UHGV virus genome: UHGV-0187309
Direction: 5' to 3' (one strand)
DNA: 44,350 nucleotides
Origin: a virus
The notes under the pieces are model-generated. The model was not told where the DNA came from. It worked only from the letters and a program-made list of their open reading frames with translations, and ran no database searches. This document shows positions 3,065 through 43,037 of the stretch, piece by piece. The translations under genes and the position numbers were made by a program. Position 1 is the stretch's first letter. Every line of letters starts with the position of its first letter.

Positions 3065-3955
3065 TTACTCCTCATCGTCCTCGTGCATGACTTCATATCG
3101 CTTGATATCTCTCTTGCTTGCAATGGAAGCGGGTTCAAGGATACCGAGAACGCGCCCGATCAGAGTGACATTGTCATATTCTGTGAATGTCATGGTATCA
3201 TACTTATCATTAAACGATACCAGACCTTCTTCCTCATATATCTTTATGTATGTACTGTTTCCAACCATGAAAGCGCCGACCTCATCGTATTGCAGCTCCG
3301 GACAGCCGGGATACTTCTCCACAAGAACAAGGTCGCCGTCATGATACTCAGGCTCCATACTGTCGCCGTTGACAGGAAACACAAGGTCTGCCTGCCGTAT
3401 TGCTGTGTTCGTATTCGGATACAGATAGATCGGTGTTCCGTTGTCCTCAAACTCCGCCCCGCCGTCAAAGCCTGCTGCAAGCCCCTTGTCGCAGAGTGTC
3501 AGTTTGATGATCTCCGGGAAGCTGCCGACAGTCTCTGCCGCTTCAAGCGAGGATAGCAGACTGTCCATTGCAAGCTGGTGCGGATACGACAGTCCACGGT
3601 ATCTCTCTACCATAGACTTTTCCTTATCAGTATAGGTATCTTGCTTGTTTTCGATGCCATATAGTTCATACAGCGTGATACCAAGTGCGTCACATAGCTT
3701 AGGAACAACGCTGAAATCCGGGCGGGTTCTTCCGTTCTCCCAGTTACTGATAGCATTTGAGGTCACGCCGATTTTTTCTGCAATCACTTTCTGATCTAAT
3801 TTTAGACGCTCCCTGTAGTATTTGATGCGACCGCCAACCGCGTGAGCGTCCTTACGGTGGGCAGGATCAGAGATGTTACTCTTAATATCCTTGCCTCCCT
3901 GTGAGACTGAGATATTCGGTTTCTTACGCTGTTTCATTACAAAGCTCTCCTTCAA
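3065..3955 (-). CDS. Phage CI/LexA-like repressor (XRE-type HTH plus S24 peptidase domain)
   Basis: 296 aa; N-terminal HTH (QKVIAEKIGVTSNAISNWENGRTRP), C-terminal S24 signature GDSMEP and a downstream Lys; divergent from the next gene with intervening promoters. Confidence 0.9.
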   Translation of the reverse strand: MKESFVMKQRKKPNISVSQGGKDIKSNISDPAHRKDAHAVGGRIKYYRERLKLDQKVIAEKIGVTSNAISNWENGRTRPDFSVVPKLCDALGITLYELYGIENKQDTYTDKEKSMVERYRGLSYPHQLAMDSLLSSLEAAETVGSFPEIIKLTLCDKGLAAGFDGGAEFEDNGTPIYLYPNTNTAIRQADLVFPVNGDSMEPEYHDGDLVLVEKYPGCPELQYDEVGAFMVGNSTYIKIYEEEGLVSFNDKYDTMTFTEYDNVTLIGRVLGILEPASIASKRDIKRYEVMHEDDEE

Positions 3956-4097
3956 GAATGTATGGGATAGTCAATCCTCAAAACGAACAAATATTCTTAT
4001 TGAAATCTGTGCAACCCTACAAAGTTTATCAAAGACTTTTCAACGCTGAAAACGTTAGAAATGCGAAATTTGGCGTAGGCATTGCATCTTTGATCAC

Positions 4098-4126
4098 ATT
4101 ATAGCACACAATCGGTGTTTTGTCAA
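4098..4126 (-). promoter_or_regulatory. Repressor promoter (TTGACA-17-TATAAT on minus strand)
   Basis: Reverse complement of 4098-4126 reads TTGACA, 17 nt, TATAAT with TGn extended -10. Confidence 0.6.
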
Positions 4127-4131
4127 TACAA

Positions 4132-4147
4132 AATTGCACTTGCAATT
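4132..4147. promoter_or_regulatory. Palindromic candidate operator AATTGCA-CT-TGCAATT overlapping the -35 of the rightward promoter
   Basis: Perfect 7 bp inverted repeat with 2 bp centre, located between the two divergent promoters. Confidence 0.5.
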
Positions 4148-4168
4148 CGTTTGACGGTGTGATATAAT
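4140..4168 (+). promoter_or_regulatory. Rightward promoter (TTGCAA-17-TATAAT) for the ImmA-like gene
   Basis: TTGCAA at 4140-4145, 17 nt spacer, TATAAT at 4163-4168; about 200 nt leader before ATG at 4370. Confidence 0.55.
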
Positions 4169-4369
4169 AGCAATGTCGGTATTCCGCCTACAGGAAAATG
4201 AGACCGAAGGCTGGTGCAGTGTGTCCGTCTTAAGGTGTGTGACAGGACAGACTGCCGGTCAGAGTACCGACAACTTCGCCATCAACCCACTTCGCCACGA
4301 TAGATATACAGAACAATAGAATGGAGCTAATGTTGGAAATACCATAAGTTGCGAAACAGGAGGGCGTAA

Positions 4370-6298
4370 ATGACTATATATCTTGATAGAGGACCGTTTC
4401 TCACCATTCCCGACAAGCTGCATTCGGGGCAGTACAGAGTGATCCGCAACCCCGACTGGCACGGAGTACTGCCGGAGATCGTGTCCTTCACCGATTTTCT
4501 CAAATGGAATTACACACTGGAGTATGGTCAGTATATCCGCAAATTGCACTACTACCACCAGCTTCCGCTGCCGTGGGTCGTTCCACAGGATGCCGAGATA
4601 GAAACTGTCATCATCGAGGAAGGCAGATATGACCGCATTGATCACAATTCCTTTGATATGTATGTGATATGCGATGTCGTGTTCGAGATGAACGGCTGCC
4701 GGCAGTGCCAGAAGTATATCGTACACGGCTTTTACTGCTCTTACGGCGGTTCAGACTTTCTGTGCGGTGCGGAGCTCTACAATGGTCAGTTTATCCGGCT
4801 GAACAATCCCTTAGATGAGTTTCTGGTTCCCATCCTTTCAAAGAAAGAATTTGCAAGCATTGCACAAGCAATCATCGACCACTACTATTCATACAAATCG
4901 AATTATCCCTGCCGCATCAATACTGCTTCAATTGCAAAGGCAATGGGTCACGATATAAAGTATGCCAGACTGTCAAAAAACGGAAATGTCAAGTCCAAGC
5001 TGATCCTGGACAAGCGGGATACGACCGTCTATGATAAGGAATACAAAGCTGTCAAAATGCGGATCGACAGTCCTACGATCCTTGTGGACGAGTCATTGGA
5101 GGAGGATGAAGCGCAGAACGCCATTATTCATGAGTGCGTTCACGCTTACCTTCACAACCTCTTCTATGAGCTGCAGAGCTACTATCGGAAAATGGTCGGC
5201 AGGAAGATGCCGGAGTTCAATGACTACTTCTATTCCAAGACGCAGCGTAGCTGCCTGAAATGGATGGAAACACAGGCAAATGCCATCCCACGCTTTATTC
5301 AGATGCCGGAGGAGCAGGCATCCGATGTCATCCTGAACTTCTTCGAGCGACTCCCCGGAGAGCCTGACTGGGACGATTACAGAGAACTGATCGACCTTGT
5401 GAAATGGAAGTTCGGAGTATCCCGCAATGCTGCGAAGAAGCGTATCATTGAGCTTGGCTGGCCGGAGGTGCGCGGTGTGTATGTCTACAACACCACAGGA
5501 TATGTTGAGGACTACGATGTAGAGCTAAGATTCCCGCAGGACTATACCTATACACTGTCATTCCGCCAAATCTCTGATGTGTTTGCATCCTGCGAGACCT
5601 TCGCAGAGCTTGTCCGTTCCAAGAAGTTCATCTATCTGGACGGTCATGTTGTGATCAACAGCGACAGGTATATCCGCAAGGAACACGGCTTAGCTATGGG
5701 CTTGACAGAGTATGCTAGACACCACATGGCAGAGTGCTGTCTGGATTTCAAGCGTATCTACGCAGAATTCGACTACAGCTATACCTATGGCGAGCTACAC
5801 AAGGATGACCTGACCGAGATCACGGCCGAAAACCGTTCGTTCAGCGATGAACAGCGAAAGAAGATCCGCATGGCAATGTATGAGATCACAGAAGAAAACT
5901 ATAAACTGACCGTTCCTTCAGATGTCAACGAATTCGGCAAGGCGGTGCGTTTCCATATGGAGAGATGCGGTCTCACCTCGGATCTGGTTGCAGACCGCAG
6001 CGGCATGGGTGTGAACACTGTCAATAAGATGCGCAGTGGCAAGAGAGTGAAGCTCGAAACAGTGCTAGCTTTTTGTGTCGCTTTGGAGCTTGAAGAGTCG
6101 TTCCGCATTGACCTTATGCAGAAAGCGAAGGTTGATTATGATATGAGCAATCCTGCCCATCGGCTCTATGTCACGATCTTTGAGCTGATGCCGAAGGCAA
6201 ATGTCTTTCAGATCAACGATCTGCTGAAGGCAGAAGGCTTTACGCCGTGGACGAGGGACTGCGAGGAAAAGAAGCGGTATGCTAAGAAAAGTATGTAA
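4370..6298 (+). CDS. Large ImmA/IrrE-like HExxH metallopeptidase-domain protein with C-terminal XRE-type HTH
   Basis: 642 aa; HExxH in IIHECVHAYLH; C-terminal HTH-like segment RSGMGVNTVNKMRSGKRVKLETVLAFCVALEL; AGGAGGG RBS. Confidence 0.8.
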   Translation: MTIYLDRGPFLTIPDKLHSGQYRVIRNPDWHGVLPEIVSFTDFLKWNYTLEYGQYIRKLHYYHQLPLPWVVPQDAEIETVIIEEGRYDRIDHNSFDMYVICDVVFEMNGCRQCQKYIVHGFYCSYGGSDFLCGAELYNGQFIRLNNPLDEFLVPILSKKEFASIAQAIIDHYYSYKSNYPCRINTASIAKAMGHDIKYARLSKNGNVKSKLILDKRDTTVYDKEYKAVKMRIDSPTILVDESLEEDEAQNAIIHECVHAYLHNLFYELQSYYRKMVGRKMPEFNDYFYSKTQRSCLKWMETQANAIPRFIQMPEEQASDVILNFFERLPGEPDWDDYRELIDLVKWKFGVSRNAAKKRIIELGWPEVRGVYVYNTTGYVEDYDVELRFPQDYTYTLSFRQISDVFASCETFAELVRSKKFIYLDGHVVINSDRYIRKEHGLAMGLTEYARHHMAECCLDFKRIYAEFDYSYTYGELHKDDLTEITAENRSFSDEQRKKIRMAMYEITEENYKLTVPSDVNEFGKAVRFHMERCGLTSDLVADRSGMGVNTVNKMRSGKRVKLETVLAFCVALELEESFRIDLMQKAKVDYDMSNPAHRLYVTIFELMPKANVFQINDLLKAEGFTPWTRDCEEKKRYAKKSM

Positions 6299-28350: not shown

Positions 28351-28582
28351 ATGTGCGGTCGTGACCGCTTACACAGAGATTTCTATGCTCAAGGGCGACG
28401 ATCTGAAATATCTGTATGACTATCTTTCCGGCTTTATCGGCAGACCGGTGTATACACACGAGATTTCTGCTGTGGTGATGGCTTACAGAGAGCAGATCAG
28501 GGAGGACTTCCTCGATCTGTGCAGGAACGCAAAGGAGGCGGATGATGGATCAGAAACACTTGACTCTCGGCAGCTTATTTGA
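28337..28582 (+). CDS. Small hypothetical protein
   Basis: 81 aa ORF from ATG 28337; overlaps both neighbouring genes; no recognisable motif. Confidence 0.45.
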   Translation: MTKHECAVVTAYTEISMLKGDDLKYLYDYLSGFIGRPVYTHEISAVVMAYREQIREDFLDLCRNAKEADDGSETLDSRQLI

Positions 28583-31145
28583 CGGCTCCGGTGGCTTTCC
28601 GCTTGGCGGCATCCTTGCAGGGATCGAGCCGAAGTGGAGCAGCGAAATTGAACCATTCCCGGTGCTTGTCACGCACAAGCGGCTGCCGCAGGTGAAGCAC
28701 TACGGCGATGTATCCAAACTGAACGGAGCAGAGCTTCCGCCGGTGGATATCATCACCTTCGGCAGCCCGTGTCAGGATCTGTCCATAGCGGGCAAGCGCG
28801 CCGGAATCCATGACGGTGATCGGTCAAACCTGTTCTTTCAGGCGATCCGCATCATCAAAGAAATGAGGGATGCAACAAATGGACGATATCCGCGATACTG
28901 CGTCTGGGAAAATGTCCCCGGCGCTTTCTCATCCAACGGAGGAAACGACTTCAAGGCTGTCCTCGAAGCAGTTATCGGAGTTAAAGAAAAAGGGATCGAG
29001 GTGCCTGCGCCTGAAAATCACAGATGGGCAAAATCAGACGTATATCTGGGAGACGGATGGAGCGTGGCTTACCGAGTTTTCGATGCTCAATACTGGGGTG
29101 TCCCCCAACGCAGAGCAAGAATCTACCTTGTCGCAGATCTTGCTGGTGGAAGTGCCGGAGAAGTATTATTTAAGTCCGAAGGCGTGTCTGGGTATACTCC
29201 GCAGGGCTTCCGTGCGTGGCAAGGAGCTGCCGGAGGTGCTGAAGAAGGCACTGGAGAGACAGGCGGGCGGTCTGACGCTGGAGGTGGAACCCTCTGCCTG
29301 AATACACAGGGCAACAGCGGCGTCGGCATCACCGAGAACAAGGCTCTCGCACTGGTCGCACAGGATCATGGCAATCATCCGGCTGTGCTTCATGCGGTCG
29401 GTATCGACGGCTACAATGCTGCGGTCACCGATGATACGGCAGCAACGCTTGGTGTGAACTGCGGAATGTCCACAGGCAGAAACGGTGTCCTGCAGGCGGC
29501 GGGATTTTCCACAGAACACAGTGCAAAAGCAAGGAGCATCGGCTACGAGGAAGAGGTATCTCCCACACTTCGAGCCGGTGTTGTTCCGGCGGCAATGGAG
29601 TTATATGAAAATCATGGGCAGGACAGCAGATTCAGAGGACCTTTGGATGTAGCACAGCCTGTGACTGCTACCTACGGCATGGGCGGCAACAATCAGCCGC
29701 TTGTGGTAGAGAACAATCCCACGGACGGCAGAGCGAAGATCAATCCCGACGGTGTGTTTCAGACGCTCTGCGGACGAGCCGGAACAGGCGGAAACAACAC
29801 GCCGCTTGTTGCTGAACCGGTCACGCTGAAAATCAGGTCGGGATGTGAGGGCGGTGGCAAGGGTGCTTTATGGCAGACCGACAAGTCTGCTACGCTCGGC
29901 ACAAACAATGACCAGAGTGTATTTGTTCCGTTCGTCAAGGGAACACGTCCGCACTCTGCTGAAGAGGGGCAAACATGGAAACCCGGCGAGGTCGCCAATA
30001 CACTGAATACCTTTGATGTCGGTGAAAGTCGCTGCAATGAACTTGTGGTGGAAGAGCCGCAGATCAGGGCTTTCGGTGTATGCAGCAAGCATTCCAATGC
30101 GATGATGTCCGACAATCCGCACAGCGGATTCTATGAGGCGACCACAAGCAGAACGCTCGACCAAAGTGGTGGAAATTCTGTGACATCGAATCAGGGCGGC
30201 ATCTGCGTGGTAGCACCTGCGCCTGAAACCTTCGATGTGCGTTTCACATCAGACGGTACAAAAAACGCTCGTGGGCATTGCTATCCGACAGACATCTCCC
30301 GATGCCTTGATACGAGCGAGGGATCGCCAGACTCGAATCACGGCGGTGTCGCTGTGGTGGCTCTTGAACCGGGGGCTGCATCACGTGTCGGCGGTCATGT
30401 ATACAGTGACGGCAAAAGCGGTACGCTTCGAGCCAATGCCGGCGATAATCAGCAGGCTGTTGTGGTCGCCGAGCCGGAGACCTATGCTCTGCAAGGCTCG
30501 ATGATCGGTCGTGCCGACAAGAACGGTCCGCAGGGTGATGGCATCAACGAGGATGTGTGCTTTACGCTCAATACATCGGACAGACACGCCATTGCCGCAC
30601 CTGATCCGTCCTTCACAATTTCCCGCGACAACCATTTTGCCGTTTCGGAGGATGTATCCGTTACAGCCGTGGCAAGAGGCCCTGCGGCAGTCGCAGCACC
30701 GGCAGACCACTATTGCACCAGTAAGAATTCGCATCATACGGTCGCCGCCCATGAGCAGGCAAACACGCTGGTCGCTTCCGACTGGAAGGATCCGCCGCTT
30801 GTGAACGACCTTCCGAATGACGAGCCAGTATATATCGTTCGCCGCTTGACTCCGGTTGAGTGCGCCAGATTGCAGGGATTCCCTGACTGGTGGTGTGCCG
30901 ACCTTGCAATTACTGATCCTTCCGATGAGGAGATCGCCTTCTGGACGGAGGTCTGGGAGACATGGCGGCAGGTCACAAATCCCAAGGGCAAGCCGAAAAC
31001 GGAAAAGCAGATCCGCAAATGGCTGGCTGATCCGTACACGGATTCAGCGGAGTACAAGCTGTGGGGCAACGGTGTCTCAGAGCCGGTCGTATACTTCGTG
31101 CTTTCCGGCATCGCATGGGCAGCGCAGAGAGATACACAAAAGTGA
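28542..31145 (+). CDS. DNA cytosine-5 methyltransferase with an unusually long, internally repetitive variable (target-recognition) region
   Basis: Motif I LFDGSGGF, motif IV GSPCQDLS, motif VI ENVPG in first ~130 aa; motifs IX/X (RRLTPVECARLQGFPDWW ... LWGNGVSEPVVYF) only in the last ~100 aa; ~600 aa in between with recurring TL-containing modules. True start may be ATG 28545. Confidence 0.85.
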   Translation: MMDQKHLTLGSLFDGSGGFPLGGILAGIEPKWSSEIEPFPVLVTHKRLPQVKHYGDVSKLNGAELPPVDIITFGSPCQDLSIAGKRAGIHDGDRSNLFFQAIRIIKEMRDATNGRYPRYCVWENVPGAFSSNGGNDFKAVLEAVIGVKEKGIEVPAPENHRWAKSDVYLGDGWSVAYRVFDAQYWGVPQRRARIYLVADLAGGSAGEVLFKSEGVSGYTPQGFRAWQGAAGGAEEGTGETGGRSDAGGGTLCLNTQGNSGVGITENKALALVAQDHGNHPAVLHAVGIDGYNAAVTDDTAATLGVNCGMSTGRNGVLQAAGFSTEHSAKARSIGYEEEVSPTLRAGVVPAAMELYENHGQDSRFRGPLDVAQPVTATYGMGGNNQPLVVENNPTDGRAKINPDGVFQTLCGRAGTGGNNTPLVAEPVTLKIRSGCEGGGKGALWQTDKSATLGTNNDQSVFVPFVKGTRPHSAEEGQTWKPGEVANTLNTFDVGESRCNELVVEEPQIRAFGVCSKHSNAMMSDNPHSGFYEATTSRTLDQSGGNSVTSNQGGICVVAPAPETFDVRFTSDGTKNARGHCYPTDISRCLDTSEGSPDSNHGGVAVVALEPGAASRVGGHVYSDGKSGTLRANAGDNQQAVVVAEPETYALQGSMIGRADKNGPQGDGINEDVCFTLNTSDRHAIAAPDPSFTISRDNHFAVSEDVSVTAVARGPAAVAAPADHYCTSKNSHHTVAAHEQANTLVASDWKDPPLVNDLPNDEPVYIVRRLTPVECARLQGFPDWWCADLAITDPSDEEIAFWTEVWETWRQVTNPKGKPKTEKQIRKWLADPYTDSAEYKLWGNGVSEPVVYFVLSGIAWAAQRDTQK

Positions 31146-31222: not shown

Positions 31223-31405
31223 TCATTCAGATTTCTTGTCTCCGCCAAGCTCGATCTTTCCGTGCTTTTCCTCATATTTTTCAATGCAGTCACGGATCAG
31301 GATCAGAACCTGACTGTTGGCAGAACGACCTTCGTAATCGGCAACAACGTGAAGTTTATCAAGCATCTCCTGTTCGATACGGATGGATACACTTTTAATA
31401 GCCAT
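31223..31405 (-). CDS. Ribbon-helix-helix (CopG/Arc/MetJ-like) DNA-binding protein
   Basis: 60 aa; MAIKSVSIRIEQEMLDKL N-terminal beta-strand plus helices typical of RHH; only minus-strand gene in a long plus-strand block. Confidence 0.7.
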   Translation of the reverse strand: MAIKSVSIRIEQEMLDKLHVVADYEGRSANSQVLILIRDCIEKYEEKHGKIELGGDKKSE

Positions 31406-31518
31406 AAAACAACTTCCTTTCAGATATATTATGACTTTATTTTAGACCTGTTTTGTGGTATAATGTTTGAAATGGATATAAAGTGTATCTAAAATATATC
31501 TATAAGAAGTTGTACGAT

Positions 31519-31857
31519 ATGAAAATAGCAATTATTGGCTCACGGGGACTTCATGTGAATGACCTTGAACGGTATCTTCCGGAAGATGTCACAGAAATCG
31601 TCAGCGGAGGAGCAAGGGGCATTGATTCGGATGCGCGGGCATACGCACAGGCACACGGCATTCCGCTGAAGGAGTTTCTGCCGGATTATGAACGCTTCGG
31701 CAGGAGCGCCCCGCTGAAACGGAATCTTGAGATCATCGCTTATGCCGATGTGGTGCTTGCATTCTGGGACGGACAGTCACGCGGCACGAAATATGTGATA
31801 GACCATTGCCGGGAACAGCACGTTCCGGTCAGGGTTTTCGCACCGAGAAAGAAATAG
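31519..31857 (+). CDS. SLOG-superfamily (DprA/LOG-like, DUF2493-like) small Rossmann-fold protein
   Basis: KIAIIGSRG ... VSGGARGIDSDA ... AFWDGQSRGT pattern shared with DprA/LOG-type domains; extended -10 TGGTATAAT promoter just upstream. Confidence 0.65.
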   Translation: MKIAIIGSRGLHVNDLERYLPEDVTEIVSGGARGIDSDARAYAQAHGIPLKEFLPDYERFGRSAPLKRNLEIIAYADVVLAFWDGQSRGTKYVIDHCREQHVPVRVFAPRKK

Positions 31858-31935: not shown

Positions 31936-31991
31936 TGTACTATGCACAATCTAAAGGGCAGACACGCCCCGTACATTCTCCGTTTTACAGT

Positions 31992-32035
31992 CTTGCATTC
32001 CGGGGCAAAAGACGGTAATATGTGACTACGAAAAC
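31992..32035 (+). promoter_or_regulatory. Cassette promoter P1 (CTTGCA-18-TAATAT) with conserved GTGAC downstream box
   Basis: First of nine near-identical promoter units; precedes ATG 32090. Confidence 0.6.
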
Positions 32036-32089
32036 GCCGCAGCCCAACGCACAAGGCTGAGGGGCGGCAGTAAAAACGGAGGTAATCAT

Positions 32090-32998
32090 ATGGAAATCAA
32101 GTTCAATATTGAAAAGAGCCAGCGCAAGGCACTGGCACAGAAAATCGGCGAGCTGACAGGAGCAGAGGTCAAGTACCTCGGTGTACCGGGCTGCAGATAC
32201 CAGATCGACTTCTTCACCCTGGACAAAAACGCAGTCCTCAGTTTCAGCGACCGCATCGACACAGATATCGTGGAGAAGGTACTGAATGGGCTTGCAGAGG
32301 CAGGATATGAAAGCAAAACAGTAGCACCGCCGGAAGAAACGGATGCTTCGGCTGAATCAGAGCCGGATATCCCTGACGAACCGAGCAGCGGATTTCCGCT
32401 GCTCGCAAGCATCAGCTTCCCGATTGCAGAGCACACGGTGCAGAGCCTTACAAACCTTATCTGCATGATCCACTCCCGCGGCGCACTTCTCAGCAAGGCG
32501 ACCGGCGGACAGTTCTTCGCAGACAAGAGCCTCGCCGATGCGATCCTCGATGACAAGACCTTCCGCAGCATCCACGAGCTTATCGCCTACATCAGAGTAT
32601 GGGAGGAAACGAATCCCGAACTGAAGGGCATCCGTTTCGCCGATGACAAGCTGATCTTTGACGGCTTCGGTGCAGCGCAGGATGCCGAAACGGTGCAGAC
32701 CTTCACCAAGCTCGCCACAGCCATGAACAGGATGGCGATCACGCAGAAACGTGTGCAGGCAAAGGATGTCGATGACAGCAACGAAAAGTACGCACTCCGC
32801 ATCTGGCTGATCCGCCTTGGGCTGAACGGCGCAGACTGCAAGGTTGACCGCAAGCGCCTCATGGCTCCGCTTTCCGGACACACCGCATTCCGCAACGATG
32901 CGGAGCGTGTGCGCTGGGAGGCAAAGCAAAAGGCAAAGCGTGATGCTGCCAGAACCGAACTGACCGAGGAGGATGAAAACGATGCAGTTTCCGAATGA
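32090..32998 (+). CDS. Hypothetical protein
   Basis: 302 aa; ACGGAGGTAA RBS; no recognisable motif. Confidence 0.75.
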   Translation: MEIKFNIEKSQRKALAQKIGELTGAEVKYLGVPGCRYQIDFFTLDKNAVLSFSDRIDTDIVEKVLNGLAEAGYESKTVAPPEETDASAESEPDIPDEPSSGFPLLASISFPIAEHTVQSLTNLICMIHSRGALLSKATGGQFFADKSLADAILDDKTFRSIHELIAYIRVWEETNPELKGIRFADDKLIFDGFGAAQDAETVQTFTKLATAMNRMAITQKRVQAKDVDDSNEKYALRIWLIRLGLNGADCKVDRKRLMAPLSGHTAFRNDAERVRWEAKQKAKRDAARTELTEEDENDAVSE

Positions 32999-33230
32999 AA
33001 GACAGCTCAGAGCCTTGCGGGAGCGTTATCCCGCAGGCACCCGCATCCGACTGAAGCATATGGATGACCCTTATGCACCCGTACCGCCCGGCACGGTCGG
33101 CGAGGTTCAGATGGTTGATGACGGCGGCAACATACACATGGTCTGGGAGAATGGCAGAACGCTCTCCCTTATAGACGGTGTCGATGATTTCCAGGTCATT
33201 TCTGACCGCAATGGGGGCTCCGGAAAATAA
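32982..33230 (+). CDS. DUF4314-like small protein
   Basis: PAGTRIRLKHMDDPYAPVPPGTVGEVQMVDDGGNIHMVWENGRTLSLIDGVDDF matches the DUF4314 pattern as I recall it; start at ATG 32982. Confidence 0.65.
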   Translation: MQFPNERQLRALRERYPAGTRIRLKHMDDPYAPVPPGTVGEVQMVDDGGNIHMVWENGRTLSLIDGVDDFQVISDRNGGSGK

Positions 33231-33341
33231 GAGATCCTATTCCATTGTATCCGAGTATACCATAGAATTTCAAGTATATCAAGTGTACACATACACCAGA
33301 TATGAGCAATGTATTTTCCTCGATATTCTGTGGTTTTAGCG

Positions 33342-33402
33342 GCTTGCTATATCCTCCGAAAGACGGTAATATGTGACACAACGGAAGGGCAAACGCCCAC
33401 CG
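33342..33402 (+). promoter_or_regulatory. Cassette promoter P2 (CTTGCT-19-TAATAT) plus conserved leader hairpin
   Basis: TAATATGTGACACAACGGAAGGGCAAACGCCCACCGAAAA leader. Confidence 0.6.
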
Positions 33403-33427
33403 AAAAACCGAATCGGAGGATACCAAA

Positions 33428-34372
33428 ATGACTGAGAAAACCGCACAGCAGATCAACAGAATGAAGGAGCAGACCATCGGGGTTGAGATCGAGATGAACA
33501 ACATCACCCGCAAGGCTGCCGCAAAGCTCGCCGCCGACTTCTTCGGCACGAACCGCTACGAGGACACGGCCTGCCGCAACGGCTACGAAACCTACAGTGC
33601 TTGGGACGCACAGGGACGCGAGTGGAAATTCCAGAAGGACGTCAGCATCGCAGGCCCCGACAGCGAAAAGTGCGAACTGGTCACACCGATCCTGCACTAC
33701 GCAGACATCGAAACCCTGCAGGAGCTTGTGAGAAGGCTCAGAAAGGCAGGAGCGCGCAGTGATTACACGCGGGGATGTGGAGTCCACTGCCACATTGGAG
33801 CCCAGGGACACACACCGCAGAGCCTCAGAAACCTCGCAAACCTTATGGCAAGCCACGAAACCCTGATCGCCGAGGCAATCAGAGTAGACCAGAGCAGAAT
33901 GCACCGCTACTGCAGAACAGTTGACCCGAGATTCCTTGAACAGCTCAACCGCAAAAAGCCCACCACGATGGCACAGCTTGCGGACATCTGGTACGGCGCA
34001 CAGGGCTGCGAATACGGCAGAACCCACCACTACAACGACAGCCGCTATCACATGCTCAACCTCCACGCTACCTTCACCAAAGGCACGGTCGAGTTCAGAC
34101 TTTTCCAGTTCGCACCGCCTTCCAACGGCAAGCAGAACGGGCTCCACGCAGGCAAGCTCAAGAGCTACATTCAGCTCTGCCTCGCAATGAGCCAGATGGC
34201 AAAGGACCTGCGGAGCGCCAGCCCCAAGGAACAGCAGAAGGAAAACAAAAAGTTCGCCATGCGGACTTGGCTGATGAGAATGGGATTCATCGGGGATGAA
34301 TTCGCAACGGCGAGAGAGGTCCTCACTGAGAACCTTACGGGCGACAACAGCTTCCGCTTCGGCAGATCTTAA
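33428..34372 (+). CDS. Putative amidoligase (glutamine-synthetase-like fold, Amidoligase_2-type)
   Basis: 314 aa; GVEIEMNN (ExE motif) and GCGVHCHIGAQGH (HxH motif) as in GS-like amidoligases of phages and conjugative elements; family call from memory. Confidence 0.7.
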   Translation: MTEKTAQQINRMKEQTIGVEIEMNNITRKAAAKLAADFFGTNRYEDTACRNGYETYSAWDAQGREWKFQKDVSIAGPDSEKCELVTPILHYADIETLQELVRRLRKAGARSDYTRGCGVHCHIGAQGHTPQSLRNLANLMASHETLIAEAIRVDQSRMHRYCRTVDPRFLEQLNRKKPTTMAQLADIWYGAQGCEYGRTHHYNDSRYHMLNLHATFTKGTVEFRLFQFAPPSNGKQNGLHAGKLKSYIQLCLAMSQMAKDLRSASPKEQQKENKKFAMRTWLMRMGFIGDEFATAREVLTENLTGDNSFRFGRS

Positions 34373-34636
34373 AGGCCTGCCCTTCGGGGCGGAAGAACAA
34401 GCGGAACGGCACGGCGGCGCACACAGCCGCCACGGTCTCGGCTCTCGCCTCGGTCGGTGCTTCTGCTTCGCAGAGGTTGCCACTGGCAACCCGCACCCCC
34501 GTGTGTGGCGGAAAGGGTATCCTCCGAATCGGTATCCCATCTCAGTCAACCGCGCCACACAGCGCAAATGTAGGCAAGGCATAAAATGCACAACATACGG
34601 CACAGAATCGCCCTCGATGATCTGTTCATTTACCCG

Positions 34637-34666
34637 CTTGATAATGCCGCCGAAATGAGTTAACAT
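34637..34666 (+). promoter_or_regulatory. Cassette promoter P3 (CTTGAT-18-TAACAT)
   Basis: Same -35/18/-10 geometry as other cassette promoters; precedes ATG 34706. Confidence 0.5.
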
Positions 34667-34705
34667 AGCACTACCGCAAGGAAAAAACGCAAAGGAGAAC
34701 ATAGC

Positions 34706-35173
34706 ATGAACAAGAAAAAATACTACATAGCCTACGGCAGCAACCTCAACATCCGCCAGATGCGATTCCGCTGCTCAGGCGCAAAGCCCATCGGCATTTC
34801 CGCGATTCCTGACTACGAACTGCTCTTCAAGGGCAGCAAGACGGGAGCGTACCTCACCATCGAGCCGAAGGACGGCGGGCTTGTTCCGGTCGCCGTGTGG
34901 GAAGTGACAGCCGACGATGAGAAGCACCTCGACATCTACGAGGGCTACCCGAACTTCTACTACAAGAAGGAAGTCCGCCTGCCAATCAGGCTGGCAAACG
35001 GCAAGACCAAAAAGGTCACGGCATTTGTCTACATCATGCACGAGGAGCGTGAGATTGCGATCCCGTCAATGACCTACATCCGCACCTGCGAGGAAGGCTA
35101 CCGCAACTTCGGCTTCGACACCAAGTTCCTTGATGCCGCCTACGAGATCAGCGCAAAGGAGGTACAGCGATGA
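34706..35173 (+). CDS. Gamma-glutamyl cyclotransferase-like (GGCT/AIG2-like) protein
   Basis: N-terminal YYIAYGSNLN signature and YEGYP Glu-containing motif. Confidence 0.8.
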   Translation: MNKKKYYIAYGSNLNIRQMRFRCSGAKPIGISAIPDYELLFKGSKTGAYLTIEPKDGGLVPVAVWEVTADDEKHLDIYEGYPNFYYKKEVRLPIRLANGKTKKVTAFVYIMHEEREIAIPSMTYIRTCEEGYRNFGFDTKFLDAAYEISAKEVQR

Positions 35174-35370
35174 AAGACCGCAACAAAGAGCCGCACATCT
35201 GCCCGAAATGCGGGCAGGCGTACACCGCCCGACCAGCTCTTTCCCGCGTGGATAACAGCCCAATCTGCCCCGACTGCGGAACGCGTGAAGCGCTTGAAAG
35301 CATCGGCGTCGGACGCGAGGAACAGGACAAGATTCTCGGCATCATCCACGAGAAGTACGAAGGCGAATAA
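35170..35370 (+). CDS. Small zinc-ribbon protein
   Basis: 66 aa; CPKCG...CPDCG Cys4; start overlaps the GGCT-like stop (ATGA). Confidence 0.6.
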   Translation: MKDRNKEPHICPKCGQAYTARPALSRVDNSPICPDCGTREALESIGVGREEQDKILGIIHEKYEGE

Positions 35371-35378
35371 GTCGGCAC

Positions 35379-35402
35379 AAAGGGGCGTTACAGCCCCTTT
35401 CC
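35379..35402 (+). terminator. Hairpin AAGGGGC-GTTACA-GCCCCTT after the zinc-ribbon gene (candidate terminator)
   Basis: 7 bp GC-rich stem with weak T-tract. Confidence 0.4.
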
Positions 35403-39897: not shown

Positions 39898-40371
39898 ATG
39901 GCTCAGAGAGGCAGAAAACCGACGCCGACAGCAATCAAGGAACTGGAAGGCAATCCCGGAAAACGACCGCTGAATGATGCAGAGCCGAAGCCGGAACGCA
40001 AGGCACCGCCCTGTCCGAAGTGGCTGGAGCCCGAAGCAAAAAAGGAATGGCGCAGGCTGTCAAAGCAACTGGAGCAGATTGGTGTGCTGACCGAGGTCGA
40101 TCAGGCGGCATTCGCATCCTACTGTCAGGCATACGCACGATGGAAAGAAGCCGAGGAATTCATGACCCAGCACGGCACGATCGTAAAAACAAAATCAGGT
40201 TACTGGCAGCAGGTTCCGCAGGTATCCATTGCGCAAACTTATCTGAAGATCATGAACAAGATCGCAGAGCAGTTTGGCCTGACCCCGGCGGCAAGAAGCC
40301 GTATCACTGCCGGCGCAGATATGAAAAACGCTGCCGTTGACGATATGGATGAACTTCTCGGAGGTGGCTGA
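39898..40371 (+). CDS. Terminase small subunit (P27-family-like)
   Basis: MAQRGRKPTPTAIKELEGNPGKRP N-terminus and FGLTPAARSRI near the C-terminus; immediately upstream of and overlapping terminase large subunit. Confidence 0.8.
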   Translation: MAQRGRKPTPTAIKELEGNPGKRPLNDAEPKPERKAPPCPKWLEPEAKKEWRRLSKQLEQIGVLTEVDQAAFASYCQAYARWKEAEEFMTQHGTIVKTKSGYWQQVPQVSIAQTYLKIMNKIAEQFGLTPAARSRITAGADMKNAAVDDMDELLGGG

Positions 40372-43037
40372 TGGCGAGAACGGCAAAGGCAAGAGAAAGA
40401 CCTGCCAACTATCCGAAACTGAAGGATTATAAACCGACACGCTTTATGCTGCCGGAATCGCACTACGATGCGGCAAAGGCTGACCGAGCTGTGCGGTTCA
40501 TCGAGAATCTCTGCCATACCAAAGGACGCTGGGCAGGCAAACCGTTCTGGCTGCTTCCGTGGCAGGAACAGATCATCCGGGATATTTTCGGCATCGTCAA
40601 AGAGGACGATATGCGGCAATTTCGTACCGCCTATGTCGAAATTCCAAAGAAAAATGGGAAGCAGCTTGCACTGGATACACCGATCCCGACTCCGCAGGGA
40701 TTCACCAATATGGGAGATCTGAAGGTCGGAGATACAGTATTCGATGAAAACGGCATTCCGTGCCATGTGGTTGCGAAAAGTCCTGTGGATGATACAGAGC
40801 AAGCCTACAAGCTGACCTTCAAGGACGGCACCTCGATCATTGCCGGGGAAAGGCATCTGTGGAACTGTCAGTATATTTACGGCAAACGCAAGGATGTTCT
40901 CTGGACGACCGGCGAGATCTATCGCAGGACAACGGAATACAGACAGCGTTTTTCCGACAGACCACAGACAAAGCGGGATTCCCTTATCCGAATTCCGGTG
41001 TGCGGTGTCCTTCAGACAGAAGCGGCAGTTTTACCGATTGATCCGTATCTGTACGGCTACTGGCTCGGAAACGGTAATGTGACCATGCCGGAGATCACTG
41101 TTCGGACGGAGGATGTCGAGGATATCATCTCGAATATTCCGTATAAGGTACACAACCGTTATCCGCAGAAATGCGGCGGCAGTGAGATCATAAAGTACAA
41201 TGAACTGAAAGCAGTACTACTTGACAGCTTCCGTGAAAAGAAGATCCGACCAGAATATCTGAGGGCATCCGCAGAGCAGAGATGGGCATTACTGCAAGGG
41301 CTTATGGATTCGGACGGCTGTATCGGCGAACGCAAAGGGCAAAGTGTGTATGTCACAACGCTGCGAGAGCTGGCGCTTTCCGTCAGAGAACTGCTGTGGT
41401 CACTCGGCATCAAAAATGCAGTGAAATGTGAGCCTTCTACACGGCATGGGTGGCCGACCGGCGAGATTTTGTATATCGTCCGTTTTACAACCTTTGATGG
41501 CCAACCGACATCAAGGCTTAAACGCAAAAATACACGCACACAGGCGCGGTTAAAGGAAACTCGCTCCTGTTTTCATTATCTGCTGGATATTCAACCTGTA
41601 AATCATCCTGTAAAAATGCAGTGCATTCAGGTGGACAGTCCGAGTCACCAATATCTCGCAGGACCGTCATTTGTGCCTACGCACAACAGTGAGCTTGCAG
41701 CGGCAATTGCACTGTATCTGCTCTACGCCGACAACGAGCCGTCTGCTGAGGTCTACGGCGCTGCTGCTGATCGTGGGCAGGCATCCATTGTATTCGATGT
41801 CGCCAAAAGAATGGTTGAGATGACACCGGCACTTCTGAAACGCTCAAAAATCATGGCGGCGACAAAGCGTCTGGTGAATTACAGTAATGTTGGCTTTTAT
41901 CAGGTGCTTTCAGCGGAAGTCGGTACAAAGCACGGATTGAATGTATCCGGTCTGGTTTTGGATGAACTTCATGCCCAACCGAACCGCAGCCTTGTGGATG
42001 TTCTCACAAAGGGTTCCGGTGATGCCCGTACTCAGCCGCTGTACTTCCTGATCACAACCGCCGGAACGGATCGCAACAGCATCTGCTACGAGTATCACAC
42101 GAAAGCAAAAGATATTCTGGACGGCAGGCGCATTGATCCGTCCTTCTATCCTGTGATCTACGGCTTGAACGATGATGACGACTGGAACGCAGAGGAGTCA
42201 TGGTATAAGGCAAATCCCTCGCTCGGATACACTATCGCCATCGACCGAGTCCGCGATGCTCACCGGGAAGCCCTTACAAATCCCGCTGAAGAAAATGTAT
42301 TCCGTCAGCTGAGGCTTGACCAGTGGGTAGGCAGTGCGGTGGCATGGATTCCGGAGCATATCTACGACAGGGGCAATCTTCCGATCGACCTCGAAAAGCT
42401 CCGGGGACGGGAGTGCTACGCAGGTCTTGACCTATCCAGCACATCGGATATCACGGCATTTGTGCTGGTGTTCCCTCCGCTGCATGACGGCGAGAAATAC
42501 ATCGTTGTCCCGCACTTCTGGCTGCCGAGAGAAACGCTCGATTTGCGAGTACGGCGAGACCATGTTCCCTACGATGTATGGGAGCGCATGGGATTATTTC
42601 ATATCACCGAGGGCAATGTGGTCGATTACAATTTCGTGCGGAAAACGATCAACGAGCTGCACACGATGTACAACATCAAGGAAATTGCTGCCGACCGCTG
42701 GAATGCCACACAGCTTATCACAGACCTTGAGGGAGACGGATTTACCGTTGTTCCGATGGGTATGGGCTTCAAGGATATGTCCCCGCCGATGAAGGAACTG
42801 TACAAGCTCATACTCGAGGGGCAGTTTATCCACGGCGGCAACCCTGTACTCCGCTGGATGGCAGGAAATGTGGTCGCTGAAATTGATGCAGCGGAGAACA
42901 TCAAACCAAGTAAAAAGAAAAGTACAGAAAAGATTGACGGTATCGTGGCATGGATCATGGCACTTGACCGCTGCATCCGCCACGAAATGCAGGGCAGTGT
43001 CTATGACGAACCCGGCCACGATCTTGTGGTCATCTGA
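40371..43037 (+). CDS. Terminase large subunit interrupted by an intein in the Walker A P-loop
   Basis: N-extein ends YVEIPKKNGK and C-extein resumes SELAAAIALYLLYADNEPSAEVYGAA, together restoring PKKNGKS; downstream VLDELH Walker B and nuclease domain. Confidence 0.9.
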   Translation: MARTAKARERPANYPKLKDYKPTRFMLPESHYDAAKADRAVRFIENLCHTKGRWAGKPFWLLPWQEQIIRDIFGIVKEDDMRQFRTAYVEIPKKNGKQLALDTPIPTPQGFTNMGDLKVGDTVFDENGIPCHVVAKSPVDDTEQAYKLTFKDGTSIIAGERHLWNCQYIYGKRKDVLWTTGEIYRRTTEYRQRFSDRPQTKRDSLIRIPVCGVLQTEAAVLPIDPYLYGYWLGNGNVTMPEITVRTEDVEDIISNIPYKVHNRYPQKCGGSEIIKYNELKAVLLDSFREKKIRPEYLRASAEQRWALLQGLMDSDGCIGERKGQSVYVTTLRELALSVRELLWSLGIKNAVKCEPSTRHGWPTGEILYIVRFTTFDGQPTSRLKRKNTRTQARLKETRSCFHYLLDIQPVNHPVKMQCIQVDSPSHQYLAGPSFVPTHNSELAAAIALYLLYADNEPSAEVYGAAADRGQASIVFDVAKRMVEMTPALLKRSKIMAATKRLVNYSNVGFYQVLSAEVGTKHGLNVSGLVLDELHAQPNRSLVDVLTKGSGDARTQPLYFLITTAGTDRNSICYEYHTKAKDILDGRRIDPSFYPVIYGLNDDDDWNAEESWYKANPSLGYTIAIDRVRDAHREALTNPAEENVFRQLRLDQWVGSAVAWIPEHIYDRGNLPIDLEKLRGRECYAGLDLSSTSDITAFVLVFPPLHDGEKYIVVPHFWLPRETLDLRVRRDHVPYDVWERMGLFHITEGNVVDYNFVRKTINELHTMYNIKEIAADRWNATQLITDLEGDGFTVVPMGMGFKDMSPPMKELYKLILEGQFIHGGNPVLRWMAGNVVAEIDAAENIKPSKKKSTEKIDGIVAWIMALDRCIRHEMQGSVYDEPGHDLVVI
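40662..41687 (+). mobile_element. Intein (about 342 aa) with LAGLIDADG-like homing endonuclease region, class-3-like features
   Basis: Begins QLALDTPI (block A-like, Gln not Cys/Ser at position 1), block B GTSIIAGERHLW, LAGLIDADG-like LLQGLMDSDGCIGE, block F/G MQCIQVDSPSHQYLAGPSFVPTHN then Ser. Confidence 0.65.

Follow-up and report, generated by a model that had tools for sequence, protein, structure and literature searches.

Why would a bacteriophage carry an enzyme predicted to form a gamma-glutamyl amide at the expense of ATP, together with a second enzyme predicted to cleave that same bond? This question is raised by an accessory stretch of the virus genome UHGV-0187309, of which 44,350 nt constitute the window analysed in this work (coordinates count from the first letter of the window). 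A preliminary description had recognised three open reading frames (ORFs) there, encoding an amidoligase-like protein, a gamma-glutamyl cyclotransferase (GGCT) of the AIG2 type and a small zinc-ribbon protein, and had proposed that they act as a write/erase unit. Here, we report that the unit consists of five genes, namely those for a paralog of the ligase lacking catalytic motifs (pAL), a DUF4314 protein, the ligase, the GGCT and, in the clade of the window only, the zinc ribbon. Judging from the established enzymology of the two folds, formation and removal of a gamma-glutamyl amide by ligase and GGCT would be the best explanation of the locus, and we give it an even chance of being correct.

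Results

Composition and conservation of the module

The composition of the module was assessed in two samples of loci. The window-clade sample comprised 160 loci in which the ligase is at least 74% identical to that of the window, half of them from viral contigs (80) and half from bacterial genomes (80); these genomes belong mainly to Ruminococcus, Oscillospiraceae and Lachnospiraceae, and a few to other Bacillota (Peptostreptococcaceae, Longibaculum and Anaerofustis). The sister-clade sample comprised 80 viral contigs with a ligase ~45% identical. In the window clade, counting loci with enough flanking sequence, GGCT accompanies the ligase in all of 129, the zinc ribbon in 128 of 129, pAL in 128 of 131 and DUF4314 in 122 of 131. 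GGCT (73/74), pAL (62/62) and DUF4314 (48/62) recur beside the sister-clade ligase, where the zinc ribbon is absent (0/74); pAL and DUF4314 are general partners, and the zinc ribbon is a clade-specific one. The linkage of ligase, GGCT and zinc ribbon put forward in the preliminary description thus holds in the window clade, although that description missed pAL and DUF4314, and overlooked a 334-bp spacer with its own promoter-like element between ligase and GGCT. The coordinates of all these features are given in Table 1.

Table 1. Genes and sequence signals of the module in the window.
Feature	Position	Strand	Length	Basis or content
Promoter-like element and leader of the pAL gene	31975..32089	+		One of nine homologous copies; repeat family D8, alignment A3
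pAL, ligase paralog without catalytic motifs	32090..32998	+	302 aa	phrog_2443, profile-profile alignment
DUF4314 protein	32982..33230	+	82 aa	Pfam DUF4314 at 7e-29; also called as 82 aa on public contigs
Promoter-like element, conserved leader and Shine-Dalgarno of the ligase gene	33326..33427	+		Repeat families D1, D2, D7, D8; alignment A3
Carboxylate-amine ligase (Amidoligase_2) of the glutamine synthetase/glutamate-cysteine ligase (GS/GCL) fold, active-looking	33428..34372	+	314 aa	
Spacer between ligase and GGCT	34373..34705	+	334 bp	GC hairpin, 18-nt motif, promoter-like site
GGCT/AIG2-like gamma-glutamyl cyclotransferase	34706..35173	+	155 aa	Pfam GGACT, phrog_2520
Cys4 zinc-ribbon protein	35170..35370	+	66 aa	phrog_2945 at 4e-23
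GC-rich hairpin AAGGGGC-GTTACA-GCCCCTT just past the zinc-ribbon stop	35380..35399	+		Read from the sequence; missed by the consensus terminator scan

The commonest gene order, pAL–DUF4314–ligase–GGCT–zinc ribbon, was found in 98 window-clade loci; in 12 others GGCT precedes the ligase, the zinc ribbon still follows the ligase, and all parts are kept. Furthermore, 41 of the 45 records with this GGCT in a phage reference collection match the ligase as well, and AIG2 stands beside an amidoligase in published annotations of Arthrobacter cluster AL phages and LUZ24-like Pseudomonas phages. The idea that the adjacency of ligase and GGCT is confined to one recently spread cassette is contradicted by the sister clade and by these Arthrobacter and Pseudomonas phages. 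It could still be argued that these are unrelated accessory genes with no functional coupling, given the promoter-like element possessed by each unit and the spacer that separates ligase from GGCT. However, the near-perfect co-occurrence in two clades, a linkage that survives changes of gene order, a gene fusion inside the module and the recurrence of the pairing in phages of Actinobacteria and Proteobacteria leave this reading with a negligible probability, and chance adjacency is effectively refuted.

In loci with a ligase 73-80% identical to that of the window, median identity amounts to 76% for the ligase, 63% for the zinc ribbon, 62% for GGCT, 45% for DUF4314 and 31% for pAL; the ligase is strongly constrained and pAL is fast-evolving. 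Protein searches scored at least 8000 candidates for each of the two ligase clades, nearly all of them significant, and the ligase was found in at least 34 reference genomes of 'Ca. Heliusvirales', a lineage to which a wide distribution and an ancient origin in the human gut have been ascribed.

The ligase and the cyclotransferase

The three ORFs first described are present exactly, with their coordinates and motifs, and the 14 public contigs encoding an identical ligase gave the same calls and the same gene set as the window. The ligase, which displays the motifs GVEIE (aa 18-22) and HCH (aa 120-122), matches Pfam Amidoligase_2 (PF12224) with an E-value of 1.1e-55 and 189.7 bits (cut-off 22) over model positions 1-244 of 245, and the PHROG 'amidoligase' family, phrog_2443, at 4e-113. 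A sequence search of the PDB returned no relative of the ligase. An AlphaFold2 model (pLDDT 86, pTM 0.87), for which the input was a 44-sequence alignment across both clades, had YbdK as its top Foldseek match, and its nearest structural relatives are the glutamate-cysteine ligases and YbdK. Hidden Markov model and structure searches thus place the protein firmly inside the GS/GCL-like ligases, the point on which the preliminary description had staked its proposal. No variation was seen at residues E20, E22, E83, H120, H122, E222 and R224 in 44 sequences from the two clades, nor in 139 locus-derived homologs; assigned by homology, these residues (GxExE strand, second glutamate, HxH and ExR) would constitute the metal/ATP/acyl-phosphate site, their catalytic roles being established knowledge of the fold. 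The ligase further carries a C-terminal helical extension of ~60 aa, common to pAL, which gave no Pfam match even at an E-value of 10.

The ligase gene is crossed over its whole length by an antisense ORF of 451 aa (33347-34702, minus strand), which matched no known family and can most likely be put down to the codon composition of the ligase gene itself. Antisense and overlapping ORFs at the ligase, GGCT and zinc-ribbon genes gave no family match in general. In the sister clade, tblastn matches of ~1310 nt, against the 888 nt of the ligase genes, were considered as signs of an intron or intein; they correspond to spill-over into the adjoining pAL gene, with no insertion.

The GGCT carries the motifs YIAYGSNL (aa 7-14) and YEGYP (aa 78-82), and matches Pfam GGACT (6.3e-13, 49.8 bits, cut-off 22.8), Pfam AIG2_2 (9.6e-07, 29.6 bits, cut-off 27) and phrog_2520, annotated as 'gamma-glutamyl cyclotransferase' (1e-53), and with these matches both family assignments of the preliminary description were upheld. 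Among solved structures, human GGCT, an enzyme acting on free gamma-glutamyl amino acids, is the closest in sequence; the YGSNL (aa 10-14) and E79 of the window protein align with its YGSNL and EG glutamate, and YGSNL and the glutamate at the catalytic position are conserved across 140 GGCT homologs.

If both proteins behave as their families do, the ligase would use ATP to phosphorylate the gamma-carboxyl of L-glutamate and would then join it to a primary amine, yielding a gamma-glutamyl amide, and in the GGCT reaction the free alpha-amine of the glutamyl group would attack the same bond, releasing the amine and 5-oxoproline. Together, the two enzymes could set the level of a gamma-glutamyl group on an amine, or install it transiently. 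The write/erase chemistry of the preliminary description is therefore a reasonable reading of the two families, essentially the one proposed in 2008 (PMC2588565).

The same similarities are compatible with a small-molecule pathway and nothing else, in which the ligase would make a gamma-glutamyl dipeptide, a glutathione-like compound or a peptide secondary metabolite, and GGCT would recycle or trim it, with no macromolecular target. This is the published view of the family (Iyer et al., 2008, PMC2588565), and it agrees with glutamate-cysteine ligases and YbdK being the closest structural relatives of the ligase, and with human GGCT being the closest relative of the cyclotransferase. However, a synthetase whose product is degraded by its partner amounts to a futile cycle, no transporter or further biosynthetic enzyme was found in the cassette, and such a pathway leaves unexplained why three non-catalytic proteins are co-conserved, why GGCT is fused to DUF4314 in some loci and why pAL evolves fast. 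We regard this pathway as possible, though rather unlikely to be the whole account.

pAL and DUF4314

The protein encoded at the start of the module, pAL, matches the same PHROG family as the ligase (phrog_2443, 1.3e-43) and has no Pfam match. When pAL and ligase were compared by BLASTP, similarity was confined to the last ~70 residues (E-value 4e-10), and profiles built from 139 ligase and 126 paralog sequences could be aligned with each other over the full length, with 99.9% probability and an E-value of 1.5e-31. In this alignment pAL has lost the ExE strand, the CELVTP segment and the HxH and ExR motifs, by replacement or deletion, and we take it, from these profiles, to be an inactivated paralog of the ligase. 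Its homologs in other phage records carry the annotation 'virulence-related protein'.

The DUF4314 gene overlaps the end of the pAL gene and has an alternative ATG at 32973; the C-termini of DUF4314 proteins are variable, and in 23 sister-clade loci the domain is fused to the C-terminus of GGCT in one polypeptide. The literature searched contained nothing on DUF4314. Many Streptococcus prophages also possess the pair formed by pAL and DUF4314 while lacking both the active ligase and GGCT, at a site flanked by methyltransferase and terminase genes; examples are Streptococcus phage Javan191 (positions 3551-4454 of locus L165) and 159 phage records, pAL being again labelled as virulence-related.

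The zinc ribbon

The ATG of the zinc-ribbon gene overlaps the GGCT stop in an ATGA at 35170-35173, as initially reported, an arrangement from which coupled translation can be predicted. Cysteines C11, C14, C33 and C36 form two conserved CxxC knuckles within a conserved core (CPxCG...PALSRxDN...ICPDCGTREAL). All 12 matches to named Pfam zinc-ribbon families fell below their cut-offs, and phrog_2945, a family with no assigned function, was the sole good match; NCBIfam offered no model for the other four proteins of the module and only sub-threshold zinc-ribbon matches for this one. PDB sequence matches to C2H2 fingers were judged to be spurious knuckle/linker similarity.

The preliminary description regarded the zinc ribbon as a target or partner of the enzymes. 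Its linkage to them in the window clade is clear, but the case for a target is weak, because the sister clade does without it, it stays by the ligase when GGCT moves, and its C-terminus is variable. Two relatives were observed outside these clades: Faecalibacterium phage FP_Taranis encodes one (positions 3275-3520 of locus L167) together with a 38%-identical ligase and no detectable GGCT, and FP_Mushu, a Mu-like phage, encodes one alone in its early region (positions 1986-2237 of locus L163). The ribbon therefore has a role for which GGCT is not needed.

Small conserved ORFs beside a ligase recall Pup-like tagging, in which the zinc ribbon or DUF4314 would be a tag that the ligase attaches through its glutamate to lysines of the target, with pAL acting like Dop. 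The window ribbon ends in ...KYEGE, and 54 of 91 distinct zinc-ribbon sequences have a terminal glutamate; the others, however, end in R, A, L, P, G, K or V, and the ribbon was rejected as a Pup-like tag on account of this non-conserved C-terminus. Moreover, a folded Cys4 ribbon is not a disordered tag, the sister clade has no zinc ribbon, and DUF4314 has variable ends and is found fused behind GGCT in some loci. A GGCT cannot act where the alpha-amine of the glutamate sits in a peptide bond, and pAL has lost every catalytic residue and would therefore have no Dop-like action. Tagging of this kind is very improbable; most plausibly, pAL, DUF4314 and the zinc ribbon would serve as binding, adaptor or regulatory partners.

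Transcriptional organisation

Nine homologous copies of a promoter-plus-leader element were found on the plus strand between 31975 and 39515, ahead of successive accessory genes or operons. The copies follow a common pattern, with a -35-like CTTGCT, GTGGACT or CTTGATA, 17 nt, a -10-like TAATAT or TATACT, and a leader of the form GACACAACGGAAGGGCA..GCCC..GGAGG..ATG. These nine copies suggest one regulon of cassette-like units. From their distribution in the accessory stretch, the module is divided into three predicted units with similar signals before each, i.e., pAL–DUF4314, the ligase alone, and GGCT–zinc ribbon; three predicted promoter/leader copies of one type are consistent with co-regulation of the module parts. 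A GGAGG-type Shine-Dalgarno precedes each of the ligase, GGCT and zinc-ribbon genes, and the transcription unit may end at the hairpin past the zinc-ribbon stop.

The spacer between ligase and GGCT is longer in the window than in relatives, where its median is ~125 nt. It contains a GC hairpin with no T tract (34377-34392), a promoter-like site TTGATA-17-TAACAT (34638-34666), and an 18-nt motif with an anti-Shine-Dalgarno (34516-34533) that is an inverted copy of the ligase Shine-Dalgarno region at 33407-33424. The spacer motif, GGTATCCTCCGAATCGGT, is kept ~90 nt past the ligase stop in 16 close relatives, and its upstream partner is conserved only in some. Two candidate elements were rejected for this spacer: a structured RNA, given that there was no Rfam match and that folding z-scores of -1.1 and -1.3 indicate no more structure than in shuffled sequence, and an antisense gene, the ORFs inside the spacer being devoid of family matches.

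Phage setting and accessory region

The window belongs to a temperate Heliusvirales-type phage of Clostridia, from gut or rumen, and its nearest annotated relatives are human-gut 'Ca. Heliusvirales' genomes and Terrisporobacter phage TPDSL_ph1. It encodes an S24/helix-turn-helix repressor, SRAP, thymidine kinase, a DUF2800 nuclease, a family A polymerase (PolA), a D5-type primase-helicase and an SNF2 helicase, as well as S-adenosylmethionine synthetase (MetK), anaerobic ribonucleotide reductase (NrdD), three DNA methyltransferases, TerS and TerL; the phage accessory setting ascribed to the module at first was thus right. The module lies in an accessory stretch with methyltransferases on one side and terminase genes on the other.

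This position invites an interpretation as DNA or nucleotide modification, in which the module would act on an amine- or carboxyl-bearing base or nucleotide within the adjoining methyltransferase-based anti-restriction block. The module is always located between DNA methyltransferases and terminase genes, and amidoligase or amidotransferase genes occur alongside thymidine-hypermodification genes in some viral contigs. Nevertheless, genes for 5-hmdU kinase, aGPT-Pplase, dUMP hydroxymethylase or deazaguanine synthesis were not found among the window ORFs scanned, and the position may just be the usual accessory-gene slot of these phages; we hold a role in DNA modification to be highly unlikely.

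Several neighbouring genes were also recorded. A C5 cytosine methyltransferase of 867 aa is encoded at 28542-31145 (plus strand), with homologs upstream of the module in most related loci; its Pfam match is confined to aa 9-143, with a C-terminal RRLTPVECARLQGFPDWW motif ~650 aa further on, and it may possess a giant or multi-specific target-recognition region. At 31223-31405 (minus strand), a 60-aa Arc-like ribbon-helix-helix protein, with a weak Arc Pfam match obtained from public contigs, adjoins a SLOG/YAcAr protein (31483-31857, plus strand) with weak similarity to the PADLOC models PsyrA and ShosA. The former may regulate the repeated promoters, and the latter may be an accessory protein that binds nucleotides. 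TerL (40371-43037, plus strand; 888 aa) harbours a LAGLIDADG_3 domain at aa 303-369, before the ATPase and nuclease domains, which is probably an intein or homing-endonuclease insertion. Finally, a 642-aa ORF beside the repressor region (4370-6298, plus strand) had no match in Pfam or PADLOC.

Discussion

The question of what would receive the gamma-glutamyl group divides the evidence. A small metabolite, either an amino acid or a polyamine, comes close to an even probability as the acceptor, and both ligase and GGCT resemble enzymes of free small molecules. A protein or another macromolecule is a substantial but lesser possibility, and a cell-wall precursor or other acceptor takes the rest. 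A bound and probably macromolecular target is favoured by the three co-conserved non-catalytic proteins, by the GGCT–DUF4314 fusion, by the fast evolution of pAL and by the futility of making and destroying a free dipeptide. In its most elaborate form, the five genes would carry out a reversible gamma-glutamylation of a host macromolecule, with pAL, DUF4314 and the zinc ribbon recognising the target or serving as adaptors through which ligase and eraser reach it. We consider this form unlikely; if true, such a modification could serve counter-defence or host takeover in a very widespread gut phage lineage. The counter-defence role suggested in the preliminary description is a conjecture, given that no PADLOC defence-system model matches any of the five proteins and that no support was found in the searched literature.

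Remodelling of cell-wall peptides has also to be weighed, that is, the addition or removal of unusual amide links in peptidoglycan stems, leading to superinfection resistance of the lysogen or the infected cell. Peptidoglycan stems do contain gamma-linked D-glutamate, but its alpha-amine is blocked by L-Ala, and GGCT requires a free alpha-amine on the glutamyl group. No hydrophobic or transmembrane segments were detected in any of the five proteins, all of which are, as predicted from sequence, soluble and cytoplasmic, and none has a signal peptide. Such a role was put forward for the phiEco32/LUZ24-type cassette and has since been suggested again for Clostridia prophages; however, the ATP-grasp and glutamine amidotransferase class II (GATase II) proteins of the proteobacterial cassette were not among the window ORFs scanned, and the searched literature held no experimental support. 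Cell-wall remodelling is accordingly quite improbable.

The reversible formation of a gamma-glutamyl amide by ligase and GGCT, which we prefer, has to contend with several observations that weigh against it. Ligase and GGCT are separate predicted transcription units in the window, not one operon, and some phages, e.g., FP_Taranis, carry the ligase with no detectable GGCT. Were one and the same free small molecule the substrate of both enzymes, glutamate and ATP would simply be turned into 5-oxoproline in a futile cycle, from which it is difficult to see how the phage would profit. The occurrence of pAL and DUF4314 by themselves in Streptococcus prophages implies a function independent of catalysis. 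The AlphaFold2 model of pAL (pLDDT 80, pTM 0.58) has no significant structural match, with a best Foldseek E-value of 0.12 and GS matches of low probability, and the homology of pAL to the ligase therefore rests on sequence profiles. Lastly, the searched literature offers no biochemical data on any member of the family.

The module matters as an uncharacterised enzyme pair that is extremely common in a dominant gut phage lineage. The increment of this work is a sharper definition of the unit, along with concrete candidates for binding and mass-spectrometry experiments; in the searched literature we did not find pAL described as an inactivated ligase paralog, nor the link of DUF4314 to the module with its fusions, nor the clade-restricted zinc ribbon. 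Specialists in the comparative genomics of conflict systems are unlikely to be surprised by the pair.

Comparison with known systems

The ligase family was described by Iyer, Burroughs and Aravind (2008, Biol Direct, PMC2588565), with CJD_1902 of C. perfringens as an example. Its genes were found in conserved neighbourhoods, the partner being a peptidase resembling glutamine amidotransferases in Proteobacteria and a GGCT of the Aig2 family in Firmicutes, and the synthesis of a peptide or of a glutathione-like metabolite was proposed. The window locus belongs to the Firmicutes type of neighbourhood, with a GGCT 334 bp downstream of the ligase, and shares with it the ligase family, the GGCT partner, the host phylum and the chemistry expected. 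In contrast, the 2008 text states that no small conserved ORFs accompany the pair, whereas the window module adds pAL, DUF4314 and a clade-specific zinc ribbon. An identical layout has been annotated in module B of C. difficile Tn6164 (MetK, methylase, 'virulence-related protein', amidoligase, AIG2/GGCT, terminase), and ligase plus GGCT have been annotated, without the full flanking layout, in C. clostridioforme LM41 prophages and in Terrisporobacter phage TPDSL_ph1, which is reported as an active prophage. Given the 2008 description and these annotations in Tn6164 and prophages, the ligase–GGCT pair is already known as a predicted system and is not new as a discovery. Nonetheless, no experimental characterisation of the pair was found in the searched literature, some eighteen years after it was first described, and the 2024 Heliusvirales paper does not mention the module genes.

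The phiEco32/LUZ24-type cassette (Amidoligase_2, COOH-NH2 ligase, GATase II, ATP-grasp and AIG2) is likewise phage-borne and has Amidoligase_2 and an AIG2-like protein in common with the window; the suggestion of cell-wall modification or superinfection exclusion is repeated in later papers, in passages that attribute it to Iyer et al. (2009). Neither GATase II and ATP-grasp proteins nor a second COOH-NH2 ligase occur among the window ORFs scanned, which include pAL, DUF4314 and the zinc ribbon instead, and the window phage is a temperate phage of Firmicutes, whereas the phiEco32/LUZ24 type is a lytic podovirus.

With the gamma-glutamyl cycle, represented by glutamate-cysteine ligase/YbdK (GCS2) and human GGCT (C7orf24), the module shares its best cyclotransferase match, and the same bond would be expected to be made and broken; however, identity of the ligase to glutamate-cysteine ligase/YbdK is only 10-13%, and the window enzyme is a minimal single domain plus the C-terminal helical extension. 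The PafA/Dop/Pup system resembles the module in combining a ligase, a paralog of it and small proteins nearby, but the window paralog appears catalytically dead, there is no conserved C-terminal Gln/Glu tag, and a GGCT takes the place of the depupylase.

A similar logic is displayed by butirosin biosynthesis, in which a gamma-glutamyl protecting group is added by the ligase BtrJ, an ATP-grasp enzyme, and removed by the GGCT-like BtrG, and by the polyamine pathway of PuuA, a full-length GS, and PuuD, a GATase-type hydrolase. In both, as proposed for the window module, ATP-dependent gamma-glutamylation of an amine is later undone, a likeness by description and not by sequence; unlike them, the window module comes with no carrier protein or downstream enzymes.

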